Source of the DNA: a virus
Taxonomy: Duplodnaviria; Heunggongvirae; Uroviricota; Caudoviricetes
Virus record (IMG/VR): IMGVR_UViG_2531839029_000017
Strand: one strand, 5' to 3'
DNA: 4,791 bases
Shown: piece by piece, positions 1 to 3,750 of the stretch
Layout: each line of letters starts with the position of its first letter
How positions within the stretch are numbered: position 1 is the first letter of the stretch
Made by a program: the position numbers and the translations under genes
Notes under the pieces: generated by a model
What the model was told of the DNA's origin: nothing
Databases searched by the model: none
The model's input: the letters and a program-made list of their open reading frames with translations, nothing else

Positions 1-72
1 ATCGGAAACGATGATCTGGCAGCCTGAGTTCACAGATAAAACACTCTCCAGGAAACCCGGGGCGGTTCAGAA

Positions 73-531
73 TTGCTTTTTAATTGTAGCAAAATTCAAC
101 CAGTTGAAAACAAGAAAGATGCTAATGAAACTTTAGAGTTAAAAATTATTGAGCTTCAGATGAAAATTAATAATTTAATCGTTGCATTGTCTGTCGCGCC
201 TGAAGTTACCGCTATAGCAGAGAAAATAAGACTATTAGATAAGGAATTACGAAGAGCTTTGGTATCATTGAAAACTTTGAAGAGTAAAGGTGTAAATTCA
301 TTCAGTGATTTTTATGCTATTGACTTAACCAGTAAAAATGGACGAGAGTTATGCCGTACACTTGCCTATAAAATATTCGAAAAAATCATAATTAATACGG
401 ATAATAAAACCTGTGATATCTATTTTATGAATGGCATTGTTTTTAAACACTATCCTTTAATGAAAGTAATATCCGCCCAGCAGGCGATAAGTGCTCTCAA
501 ATATATGGTTGATGGTGAGGTTTATTTTTGA
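73..531 (+). CDS. Hypothetical protein, unknown function, in AT-rich cargo segment; N-terminal half is coiled-coil-like. Start uncertain: TTG at 73 is the first start after an in-frame stop at 37-39, and the first in-frame ATG is at 160 (123-aa product).
   Basis: Six-frame ORF of 152 aa. Hand counts give about 22-25% G+C on lines 121-180 and 361-420 versus about 50% on line 1681-1740. No convincing Shine-Dalgarno before either start. No similarity that I recognise. Confidence 0.35.
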   Translation: MLFNCSKIQPVENKKDANETLELKIIELQMKINNLIVALSVAPEVTAIAEKIRLLDKELRRALVSLKTLKSKGVNSFSDFYAIDLTSKNGRELCRTLAYKIFEKIIINTDNKTCDIYFMNGIVFKHYPLMKVISAQQAISALKYMVDGEVYF

Positions 532-2300: not shown

Positions 2301-2437
2301 TGTTTGAGTCTTATATGGCAGAACGTCTTCGCCACCGCTGGATGCGCCTGCGCTTATATCGTTTTCCTGGTTCTGTTTTGACCGATTACCGGATACTGAA
2401 GAATTACGCCAAAACACTGAAAGGAGCTGCCGCATGA
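2297..2437 (+). CDS. ylcG: YlcG-family small phage protein (46 aa)
   Basis: ATG at 2297 overlaps the rusA stop (2298-2300). Translation [46 protein letters not shown]. Stop 2435-2437 overlaps the next gene's ATG (ATGA). Position between rusA and Q matches DLP12 ylcG. Below the ORF-track length cutoff. Confidence 0.6.
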
Positions 2438-3123
2438 ATACCCAATATTTACAGTATGTCCGCGAGCAACTCATTGTGGCTACCGCTGATTTGAGCGGAG
2501 CAACGAAAGGACAGCTTGAAGCCTGGCTGGAGCATGCACAATTTGATACTGGTACATACAAACGAAAGAAGCCGCGCATTCTGGATGAGGTAACTGGCAG
2601 GATGATTACGCTGGATAATCCGCCGATTTCCGGTAAGCAGTCGTACGCAAAAGGTTCATCCATTGCACTGGTCAGCCAGGTTGAGTTCTCAACCTCGTCA
2701 TGGCGCCGCGCGGTTCTGTCTCTCGAAGAACATCAGAAAGCGTGGTTGCTGTGGAGTTACAGCGAAAGTGTTCGCTGGGAACATCAGGTCACCATAACGC
2801 AGTGGGCATGGAGCGAGTTTAAGACTCTGTTGGGTACCAGGAAAATTGCAGGTAAGACACTGGAACGTTTGAAGAAGTTGATCTGGCTGGCGGCACAGGA
2901 TGTGAAGAACGAGCTGGCAGGGCGTAAGACCTATGAATACCAGGAGCTGGCATCACTGGTGGGAGTGACATCAAAAAACTGGTCTGAGACATTTACTGAA
3001 CGCTGGGTTGCAATGAAACACATTTTTCTACAGCTTGATAGCCAAGCTTTATTGCTTTTAACGAAAACACGTTCAAAACAAAAGACCACATTTTCACAGC
3101 AAGATATTGCAAAACTGGATTAA
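2434..3123 (+). CDS. Putative late-gene antitermination protein (Q-like), non-lambda family, 229 aa, no cysteines
   Basis: Occupies the Q slot: last gene of the nin operon, just upstream of a non-coding region with promoter and terminator hairpins and then the lysis genes. AAGGAG at 2421-2426 sits 7 nt before the ATG. Not similar to lambda Q as I recall it; family assignment is inferred from position. Confidence 0.5.
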   Translation: MNTQYLQYVREQLIVATADLSGATKGQLEAWLEHAQFDTGTYKRKKPRILDEVTGRMITLDNPPISGKQSYAKGSSIALVSQVEFSTSSWRRAVLSLEEHQKAWLLWSYSESVRWEHQVTITQWAWSEFKTLLGTRKIAGKTLERLKKLIWLAAQDVKNELAGRKTYEYQELASLVGVTSKNWSETFTERWVAMKHIFLQLDSQALLLLTKTRSKQKTTFSQQDIAKLD

Positions 3124-3135
3124 AAATCATATATT
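3107..3135 (+). promoter_or_regulatory. Candidate sigma70 late promoter (PR'-like): -35 TTGCAA (3107-3112), 17-bp spacer, -10 TATATT (3130-3135). An alternative is -35 TTGCCA (3154-3159) with -10 AGTAAT (3177-3182).
   Basis: Hexamer matches read by eye. By analogy with lambda, PR' and qut lie just downstream of Q. Not verified. Confidence 0.25.
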
Positions 3136-3191
3136 TTATGTAAATCTGATATTTTGCCAATGTTGTACGCACTGGCAGTAATCCAAATTCA

Positions 3192-3226
3192 AGCCCGAGG
3201 TTTAAAGCCTTGGGCTTTTCTGTTTC
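3192..3226 (+). terminator. Hairpin with 9-bp stem agcccgagg/ccttgggct (one G-U pair) and 7-nt loop, followed by TTTTCTGTTTC; candidate intrinsic terminator or 5' structure of the late leader RNA
   Basis: Read directly from the sequence. Lies in the Q-to-holin intergenic region. Confidence 0.4.
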
Positions 3227-3304
3227 TGAACGGTGAGTAGCCTTCCAACCTACCCCAGCCAGGGGGTCTTCAGCTGTTGAGTTGATATTGCTTAGCCCTC
3301 TGTT

Positions 3305-3330
3305 GCCAGCTACATGCTGGCTTTTTTATT
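3305..3330 (+). terminator. Intrinsic terminator candidate (tR'-like): 6-bp GC-rich stem gccagc/gctggc, 5-nt loop, then TTTTTTATT
   Basis: Perfect stem followed by a T-run. It is roughly 150-200 nt downstream of the candidate promoters, comparable to the approximately 194-nt lambda 6S transcript ended at tR'. Confidence 0.5.
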
Positions 3331-3432
3331 CCAGGCTTGTGGGGAGCATCAACTCCGTGCTTTGTCGTTAAATTACCCCGTGAGCCTGATTTCTGACATT
3401 TAACGTCCCGGCCTTTTGTCGGCGGCGAAACA

Positions 3433-3750
3433 TTGGCTATTCATATGCACGAAAAAGAGAGCCTTGCCGGAGCGTTCTGGCTCGTTTTGCTGATCATCGC
3501 AGGTTGGGGCGGTCTGGTCCGCTACCTGATAGATGTGAAGCAGAGTAAAGCAACGTGGAGTTGGATAAATGCTCTGGCTCAAATAGTGGTATCAGGATTC
3601 ACCGGTGTTATTGGTGGCCTGATCAGCATCGAAAGTGGATTCAGTATTTACATGATTCTCGCGACAGCGGGGATTAGTGGTGCGATGGGTTCGGTTGCAC
3701 TGACGTACTTCTGGGAACGACTGACAGGGGTGAAAAATGCAAAATCTTAA
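3433..3750 (+). CDS. Putative class I holin with three predicted TM segments and a charged C-terminal tail, not lambda S-like. Possible dual start: TTG 3433 and ATG 3445.
   Basis: Three hydrophobic stretches (AFWLVLLIIAGWGGLV, INALAQIVVSGFTGVIGGLI, FSIYMILATAGISGAMGSVALTYFW) followed by [11 protein letters not shown]. The 3' end overlaps the start of the endolysin gene by 14 nt, as lambda S/R do. Sits immediately downstream of the late terminator region. Confidence 0.55.
   Translation: MAIHMHEKESLAGAFWLVLLIIAGWGGLVRYLIDVKQSKATWSWINALAQIVVSGFTGVIGGLISIESGFSIYMILATAGISGAMGSVALTYFWERLTGVKNAKS

Follow-up and report, generated by a model that had tools for sequence, protein, structure and literature searches.

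In the present study, we analysed the region between an antiterminator gene and a holin gene in a 4,791-nucleotide stretch of DNA from the IMG/VR virus record IMGVR_UViG_2531839029_000017, which is called the window here. The genes of the window follow each other in the order ybcN, ninE, DUF1364, rusA, ylcG, Q, the gap under study, holin, endolysin and Rz/Rz1. A segment 100% identical to all 4791 bases lies beside icd in many E. coli O157:H7 chromosomes; in strain Sakai the counterpart of the window is prophage Sp8, integrated by icd, in which Q is ECs_1620 and the holin is ECs_1621, and subtracting 1,623,283 from a Sakai coordinate gives the position in the window. The whole region is present in 790 of 5426 complete E. 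coli genomes (about 15%), and the IsrJ type of leader RNA described below also occurs in many other genera. The product of 2434-3123 carries the RefSeq name 'bacteriophage antitermination protein Q' and falls into PF06323, the Q82 family, which is one of three unrelated Q families (Yin et al., PMC9388147). No solved structure for this Q protein was found in a sequence-based search. The gap that follows, 3124-3432, had been read in an original prediction as a late promoter, qut and terminator region with a short terminated leader RNA. This reading of a predicted RNA is sustained by the Q family, by the features of the phage 82 PR' promoter, by a match to the isrJ RNA family and by 54 of 55 related loci, and all the sequence features that had been described are found in the DNA where they had been placed. 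The gap was also rightly said to have no open reading frame (ORF) and no tRNA or other cargo: nothing above 29 amino acids is encoded in 3124-3432, the start codons there are weak, and a tRNA/tmRNA scan of the gap found none. Relatives carry tRNAs and morons at exactly that place. The coordinates of the features are given in Table 1.

Table 1. Features of the antiterminator-holin region, in window coordinates.
Feature	Position	Strand	Details
Q antiterminator gene, Q82 family	2434..3123	+	Pfam PF06323, E = 1.4e-94
Late promoter PR'	-35 TTGCAA 3107-3112, 17-bp spacer, -10 TATATT 3130-3135	+	Hexamers, position and conservation
Predicted transcription start +1 (A)	3142	+	7 nt past the -10, the usual distance; fits phage 82 PR' positions
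Predicted late-leader RNA, about 80 nt, IsrJ-like	3142..3224	+	5' single strand, hairpin 1, A/U-rich linker, T1; predicted 3' end
Predicted sigma70-dependent pause element	3147..3158	+	TG-a-TATTTT (+6..+14) and GCC discriminator (+15..+17)
Leader hairpin 1	3154..3178	+	UGCCA...UGGCA core, -8.7 kcal/mol
Predicted promoter-proximal pause site +25/+26, Q loading point	3166..3167	+	Positional inference from PMC5001585
Terminator T1, tR' of the Q82-type module	3191..3226	+	Stem 3191-3217, 12 pairs, -18.4 kcal/mol; U-tract 3216-3226
Lineage-specific spacer with small CCCC/GGGG hairpin (3253-3266)	3227..3282	+	Probably not functional
Terminator T2, 'guard' of the lysis-cassette leader	3305..3330	+	GCCAGC-uacau-GCUGGC, stem 3305-3321, 6 pairs, -11.9 kcal/mol
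Conserved structured RNA element of the lysis-cassette leader	3331..3390	+	Stem P1, 3332-3344 with 3376-3388
Hairpin just before the holin start codons	3404..3427	+	-11.8 kcal/mol
Holin gene, first of the late lysis cassette	3433..3750	+	Pfam PF16083; starts TTG 3433 or ATG 3445

The segment 3107-3226 is, in our view, very probably the late-gene switch of a phage-82-type lambdoid prophage. The switch itself is ordinary and represents the textbook late-gene control of such a prophage. RNAs that start at PR' and end early at a terminator have been described from lambda, 21, phi80, 82, P22 and the Stx phages (PMC7547250). The final codons of Q (C-terminus ..IAKLD*) overlap the -35 element of PR', and the AKLD at the C-terminus is kept in 9 of 10 diverse homologues. 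For comparison, 80 viral contigs with close Q homologues served as relatives, and 55 loci from other species, one genome per species, were picked through the Q protein only. In 54 of these 55 loci the promoter and the pause element are kept at the end of the Q gene and a terminator follows them: TTGCAA is separated by about 17 bp from a (T/C)ATATT-like hexamer, and about 10 bp further on come TG-n-TATnnT and a GC-rich triplet. Both hexamers of PR' are invariant across 27 close variants, and TG-n-TATnnT followed by the GC-rich triplet is retained in every leader variant from related loci. Two promoters had been offered as alternatives for this gap, and it is the first of them, TTGCAA-17-TATATT, which is conserved. 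The second, TTGCCA(3154)-17-AGTAAT(3177), would make a shorter RNA from near 3189 if it were the real promoter, and its hexamers and 17-bp spacing do exist. However, it was not reported by a simple promoter scan, TTGCCA reads GTGCCA or CGTCGCC in related leaders and AGTAAT is lost there, and the segment forms hairpin 1 within the transcribed leader. Moreover, an RNA from about 3189 would be hardly more than a terminator, whereas the isrJ matches span from 3139, and we consider this second promoter extremely improbable.

The elements of the conserved promoter follow the order described for phage 82. According to the descriptions of the 82 PR' by the Roberts and Hochschild laboratories, the -10-like pause element is closer to consensus than that of lambda and comes with an extended -10, GCC occupies +15-17, and the stretch from +18 to +25 is AT-rich. 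Pausing takes place at +25/+26, where +25 is U; since a 1-base insertion at +18 brings G to the pause end, +24 is G (PMC5001585). In the window, TG at 3147-3148 (+6/+7) is followed by a, by TATTTT at 3150-3155 (+9-14) and by GCC at 3156-3158, and the stretch +18-25 (3159-3166) reads AATGTTGT, with G at 3165 (+24) and U at 3166 (+25) when +1 is 3142. In this feature comparison, a single choice of +1 (3142) satisfies every positional feature published for the 82 PR'. The two systems also have in common the PF06323 family, the position of the promoter at the end of the Q gene and a downstream intrinsic terminator. In phage 82, the segment -31..+30 of PR' suffices for Q82 action and holds the Q-binding and pause elements (PMC4914094). 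In addition, mosaic breakpoints against other module combinations fall at 3156, at 3167 (+26) and at 3221 (the end of T1), and homology with the group of loci L028, L029, L039 and L060 stops at 3165-3167. These breakpoints indicate that the block -37..+26 is co-inherited with Q and that T1 is the next unit.

On the minus strand, TTGCAATATCTTGC at 3097-3110 (TTGC-N6-TTGC, the CII-binding consensus) overlaps the -35 of PR'. In lambda, the control of Q by the antisense promoter paQ is established, and a minus-strand promoter reading into the 3' end of Q could similarly produce a paQ-like antisense RNA that dampens Q. The candidates for this promoter are TTGGCA 3160-3155 with 16 bp to TAAAAT 3138-3133, and/or the CII-type TTGC-N6-TTGC at 3110-3097. 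With 10/12, TTGGCA-16-TAAAAT has the best promoter-like score in the window, and the homologous place in the phage 434 record is annotated as a CII site and paQ -35; PMC7547250 names the paQ transcript and no more. However, the -10 TAAAAT turns into TGAAAT (3137 T>C) in 20 of the 27 close variants, the -35 runs across the GCC discriminator, whose conservation has another cause, and the hexamer pair is missing from Gifsy-1 and 434. The spacing of the TTGC repeat is N5 or degenerate in many relatives, and the annotated Sp8 region has no cII gene. The match to TTGGCA-16-TAAAAT is probably due to chance, and an antisense control of Q from this place seems very unlikely to us.

The predicted RNA from +1 to T1 folds with -27.6 kcal/mol, which is better than 200 of 200 shuffles (z = -4.06). 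Related leaders show two layouts: a short 434-type, in which the terminator comes straight after the pause site and hairpin 1 is not present, and a two-hairpin type, to which the window belongs. At the position of hairpin 1, other leaders have pairs built from GUCG/CGAC, GCUGCC/GGCGGC or UGCCAA/UUGGCA, with a 5' arm that includes the discriminator, and the use of at least four different sequence pairs for this hairpin suggests that the hairpin is under selection. Close variants retain the pairing of T1 by wobble or compensatory substitutions, namely 3195 C>T, 3207 G>A and the double change of 3199 G>A and 3209 C>T. The window contains 12 terminator-like sites against 4.6 +/- 1.7 expected, and T1 and T2, the two hairpins which had been pointed out as terminator-like, are the best two on the plus strand. 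Of 74 distinct leader variants, 73 were found to contain an intrinsic terminator, whose stem ends at +46..+89 in nearly all; hairpins and terminators were detected per sequence for this purpose, as the MAFFT/RNAalifold alignment of the leader family was structurally inconsistent at the inner terminator stem. The leader had been called 6S-like, and it would indeed be short and terminated, but the predicted T1 product of about 80 nt has the size of IsrJ (74 nt) and not that of lambda 6S (about 194 nt). To approach the size of 6S, the RNA would have to extend to T2 (about 187 nt). The small CCCC/GGGG hairpin at 3253-3266 that had also been noted is present but not conserved, and G3265T disrupts it in 25 of 27 close variants. 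The hairpin lies in a stretch without homology to other module combinations, which is lost at 3221 and found again from 3268 or later.

The sequence features, the conservation, the synteny and the covariation were observed here, and from these we infer the start site, the pause, the termination, the Q dependence and any trans-acting role of the RNA. In the proposed mechanism, host sigma70 RNA polymerase would initiate constitutively at PR' (+1 about 3142) and pause at +25/+26, as sigma70 re-binds TG-a-TATTTT (+6..+14), backed by GCC (+15-17). Without Q, the polymerase would resume and stop at T1, releasing an IsrJ-related RNA of about 80 nt, and leakage past T1 would be caught at T2 and give an RNA of about 187 nt. 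The Q82-family protein would bind DNA within about -31..+30 and load onto the paused polymerase. The Q-modified polymerase would then be terminator-resistant and read through T1 and T2 into the holin, endolysin, Rz/Rz1 and structural genes.

A permissive Rfam scan of the whole window, a check that had been proposed for this gap, gave one match, a sub-threshold match to isrJ (RF01393) over the leader at 3139-3218 (model positions 1-75, E = 0.009), and nothing over the 3331-3390 element. IsrJ is a 74-nt RNA of the Salmonella prophage Gifsy-1. It was seen in Northern blots and by primer extension, and its own promoter drives its synthesis from a plasmid (PMC2330248). Among 40 loci of other genera chosen by Q homology alone, isrJ reaches the gathering score in 21, and all these 21 matches begin 16 nt past the stop of a Q82-family gene; the match in the window has an equal offset (3139 vs 3123). 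From this shared offset, IsrJ looks like the terminated late-leader RNA of Q82-type phages, of which the window would encode a divergent member. The promoter and the first 11 nt of Gifsy-1 isrJ have 91.5% identity over 47 nt to window 3106-3152 (-36..+11). This shared stretch includes TTGCAAAACTGGATTAA, which encodes the end of Q in the window, and the linker-plus-stem CAAAUUCAAGCC is identical between the window and Gifsy-1. The two RNAs also agree in their layout (5' strand, hairpin, linker, terminator) and nearly in length (74 vs about 80 nt), but they differ in the sequence of hairpin 1 and in the terminator loop. Furthermore, a P1-type c4/isrK-anrP cassette separates Q from the promoter in Gifsy-1.

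In Gifsy-1 (L002 2166-3001), this P1/P7 immI-like cassette stands between Q (AntQ) and the isrJ promoter. IsrK coincides there with the Rfam c4-a1b1 target sites; next in order are a C4 antisense RNA (2300-2383) and anrP, which encodes an antirepressor. The insertion of the cassette replaced the usual ..AKLD C-terminus of Q and shifted PR' by about 840 bp from Q. In earlier studies, Hershko-Shalev et al. described isrJ as the end of an isrK-orf45-anrP transcript, with no mention of qut, and Sy et al. named IsrK, not IsrJ, as the antitermination-linked RNA (PMC7547250). No statement that IsrJ is a Q82-type PR' leader was found in the searchable papers. If IsrJ is truly a PR' leader, the conservation of its 5' end would reflect a sigma70 pause element and not an RNA seed. 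A known Salmonella small RNA (sRNA) would thereby be tied to a defined mechanism and place, which changes the reading of its conservation and of its 'own promoter'. It is predicted that Q82-type Q proteins, including AntQ of Gifsy-1, act at the isrJ promoter.

Alternatively, the T1-terminated RNA could be primarily a trans-acting, Hfq-dependent sRNA on host mRNAs, a functional orthologue of IsrJ, and not a by-product of antitermination. Deletion of IsrJ lowers invasion and effector translocation of Salmonella (PMC2330248), and StxS, the PR' leader of Stx1/Stx2 phages, binds Hfq and regulates host genes (PMC7547250). The RNA of the window also has an sRNA-like layout, with a hairpin, an A/U-rich linker and a terminator with a U tail, and it has the same CAAAUUCAAGCC as Gifsy-1. 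Against such a role, the most conserved part, the 5' 12 nt, is accounted for by the DNA-level pause element. Further downstream, leaders have exchanged their sequences, with at least four types of hairpin 1 and several types of terminator, and this speaks against a conserved seed. Moreover, Sp8 has no listed Hfq peak. The virulence phenotype, the HilA dependence and the Hfq binding of IsrJ are reported in Salmonella only. We regard a primary trans role as possible but rather doubtful; a trans role and a cis role of the leader RNA can both hold.

The proposed late-gene switch was also compared with better-known leaders. The lambda 6S system has the logic that is predicted for the window: a constitutive late promoter, a promoter-proximal sigma70-dependent pause, a short terminated leader in the lysogen and a Q-dependent read-through. 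In contrast, the lambda Q family (PF03589) is unrelated, its pause is at +16/17 and its RNA has 194 nt. Lambda Q binds between the -35 and the -10. The pause element of the window lies 8-9 bp further downstream than that of lambda, and there is no similarity to the lambda leader sequence. On these grounds, the window appears to work like lambda 6S and yet is a non-member of the lambda 6S/Q-lambda qut class. StxS, too, is transcribed from the PR' of an O157 prophage and terminated; it remains present in lysogens and is able to work as an sRNA that depends on Hfq. It has another Q type and sequence, however, and is processed by RNase E from a longer leader.

Several points weigh against the late-gene switch as proposed. 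The TTGCAA-17-TATATT pair matches 9/12 consensus positions, and the window has 7 such sites against 7.4 expected from shuffled sequence, i.e. the promoter hexamers by themselves are not above chance. The promoter call therefore cannot rest on consensus alone, and its support comes from position and conservation. The identity to the 82 PR' is judged from verbal descriptions of its features rather than from a sequence alignment, and the 82 PR' sequence was not found in the paper texts, supplements or collections searched. The published and Rfam 5' end of IsrJ (3139) is 3 nt upstream of the +1 at 3142. The isrJ score of the window is 30.4 bits and is below the Rfam gathering score of 37; it is low because the hairpin-1 sequence and the terminator loop differ, and the RNA of the window is therefore treated as a divergent homologue and not as a curated member of the isrJ family. 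The U-tract of T1, whose tail to 3226 reads UUUUCUGUUUC, is interrupted, so its efficiency is uncertain and some leakage, for T2 to catch, is suggested. Table S2 of Tree et al. 2014 has no Hfq-bound orphan peak in Sp8; since the filter used there dropped sites within 100 nt of a coding sequence, this absence carries little weight.

The state of the prophage is a further point of this kind. The annotated Sp8 contains integrase, excisionase, a truncated O gene, P and ren, and no repressor or early regulators, and for this reason it looks defective. As the immunity and early region is missing, Sp8 may never express its own Q, and Q dependence in vivo might require Q from another prophage. The PR' leader of Sp8 is probably expressed with no prospect of induction by a cognate Q, unless another prophage supplies one.

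Two sequential terminators had been proposed for Q to override in this gap. Both are present, but T2 lies outside the Q-linked module. To judge from the sequence comparisons, T2 is part of a separately inherited lysis-cassette module, together with the 3331-3390 element. The T2 tail is U6AU2. The P1 stem encloses the conserved loop ..GUGCUUUGUCGUUAAAU.., with ..GUGCUUUGUYGWUAAAU.. as the form across relatives, and was predicted by RNAalifold on its own. The shared core of the module is a GC-rich hairpin with a T-run and a long stem 3-5 nt further on. A covariance model, R1, was built from 36 sequences (66.6 bits for the window). Of 66 sources, 32 have a match to it, and 25 of the 55 Q-only-chosen loci are among them. 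All R1 matches are on the plus strand and 180-1100 nt downstream of Q, and in 30 of the 32 a hairpin with a T-run stands directly upstream of the element, made from 29 different hairpin sequences.

Parts of 3268-3440 occur in mEp237, UPF_BP1, HK225, Gifsy-2 and many Klebsiella phages, unannotated every time. In JNEC-KY176 (L140), the antitermination gene before the segment 3268-3440 is annotated differently and has 753 nt, while the holin after the segment is the same. Further copies of the module lie at 2001-2115 in L264, 2501-2602 in L263, about 1990-2080 in L141 and about 2690-2785 in L085. No copy was found on reading the lambda leader and R1 has no match in lambda, which differs from the window in lacking the T2 + P1 leader module; R1 has no match either in the late region of the Sp5 stx2 phage, a further difference from the StxS system. 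No Rfam family was matched by the 3331-3390 element (4227 covariance models, E <= 10, with the window and the Gifsy-2 copy as queries), and no papers containing its sequence were found.

It could be argued that T2 and the 3331-3390 fold are a mere conserved recombination linker, with no RNA function, and that T2 ends whatever lies upstream. The module does lie exactly at the mosaic boundary, behind differently annotated antitermination genes and before different holin families. However, a pure DNA linker is expected to be conserved in sequence without covariation, whereas 9 of 12 P1 pairs have changes on both sides in the R1 alignment and still pair. The P1 cells are paired in 88.5%, compared with 49% when the partner is slid by one column, and 0 of 500 shuffles reach the observed covariation; this alignment is fitted to the model, which favours structure. 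Nevertheless, pairing persists in whole classes whose stem sequences are unrelated, such as GUGUCGUCGGG/CCCGGCGGCAC and CCCAGACCCUCGGG/CCCGCAGGGUCUGGG. Many of the P1 pairs are G-U, which would be A-C mismatches on the other strand, and the structure therefore belongs to the late transcript. In addition, the terminator hairpin has 29 different sequences in 30 loci and is always a hairpin with a T-run, and the holin start stays within 1-50 nt of the element. We consider the linker explanation unlikely.

We propose instead, as a tentative possibility, that T2 and 3331-3390 form an undescribed cis-regulatory RNA module that guards and shapes the lysis cassettes of many lambdoid and P22-like prophages of Enterobacteriaceae. 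A polymerase that reached the holin without modification by Q would endanger the lysogen, and a terminator before the leader makes sense as insulation. In the explanation that we favour, T2 would shield the lethal lysis genes from such polymerase, which may come from T1 leakage or, in relatives, from moron transcription. The 3331-3390 fold would be a cis-acting leader of the lysis mRNA, possibly a 5' stabiliser or a processing site; alternatively, the stem-loop may serve as a processing site or as a protein-binding site. The AU-rich linker between the two hairpins resembles an RNase E site; a cut in it would make P1 the 5' terminus of the lysis mRNA, where it could serve as a stabiliser. If so, the element would form the 5' end of the holin mRNA and could set mRNA stability, translation or the choice of holin/antiholin start, and thereby the timing of lysis.

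Other readings of the element were tried and rejected. A link of P1 to the O157 anti-sRNAs AsxR and EcOnc27 was dropped on the missing model match in the Sp5 stx2 late region. The conserved loop GTGCTTTGTYGWTAAAT was considered as a promoter, but by eye it has no consistent -35/-10 pair, and the covariation and the G-U pairs on the plus strand indicate an RNA. A conserved inner hairpin (P2), or a pairing CGUUAAAU/AUUUAACG between the loop and downstream sequence, is by eye not kept across the sequence classes.

Across the R1 matches, the next ORF begins 1-50 nt downstream of the P1 element, and in 9 of 10 scored representatives it belongs to a Pfam holin family at the curated cut-off. At least five holin families follow the element, namely P21 S, HP1, LydA, lambda S and Phage_holin_8, and a dual-start motif such as MxRM opens many of these ORFs. 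Lysis cassettes with at least five unrelated holin families therefore share a terminator and a covarying stem-loop leader which is in no RNA database. This raises the testable questions of how prophages silence lethal lysis genes while neighbouring morons are expressed, and of what shapes the 5' end of the lysis mRNA. In the window, RefSeq places the holin start at 3445; the two candidate starts (MAIHMHEK..) recall a dual-start holin/antiholin arrangement. Wherever this holin is found, the block 3400-3440 shows 95% conservation.

Upstream of T2, the motif (A)CATTGCCTTACCCTCAYATTGCC (ATTGCTTAGCCCTCTGTTGCC in the window, at 3286-3306) is conserved just before the T2-type hairpin and extends into it. 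It is also found in L089, L095, L121, L126, L130, L104, L125, L094, L122, L108, L085 and L142. Since this conservation runs into the hairpin, the lysis-leader module may begin about 20 nt before T2.

Various insertions are found between tR' and the holin leader of relatives. One locus has a minus-strand ORF of 267 amino acids (L028 3412-4215), another a minus-strand ORF of 107 amino acids whose N-terminus resembles a lipoprotein signal peptide (L049 3356-3679), and in many species 1-2 tRNA genes come straight after the leader terminator. Cargo after tR' was seen in L090, L094, L100, L103, L108, L110, L118, L120 and L123, and Rfam matches to isrI and STnc100 also fall within this interval of relatives. 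The sequence TTTTTTATATCTGCACAACAGGTAAGAGC, which follows tR' in lambda (L265 975-1000), recurs after Q82-type terminators in L099 and L121 (..TTTTTCGTATCTGCACAACAGGTA..), and this sharing looks like a mosaic joint between phages with unrelated Q families.

Elsewhere in Sp8, in the 12 kb upstream of the window and in window 1-531, there are an emrE-like gene and a recombinase split by IS1203. On the minus strand of the window, a strong terminator-like hairpin with a 12-bp stem (GTCACCGGAGTT..AGCTCCGGTGAC) lies at 885-913, in non-coding sequence between the recombinase fragment and ybcN.

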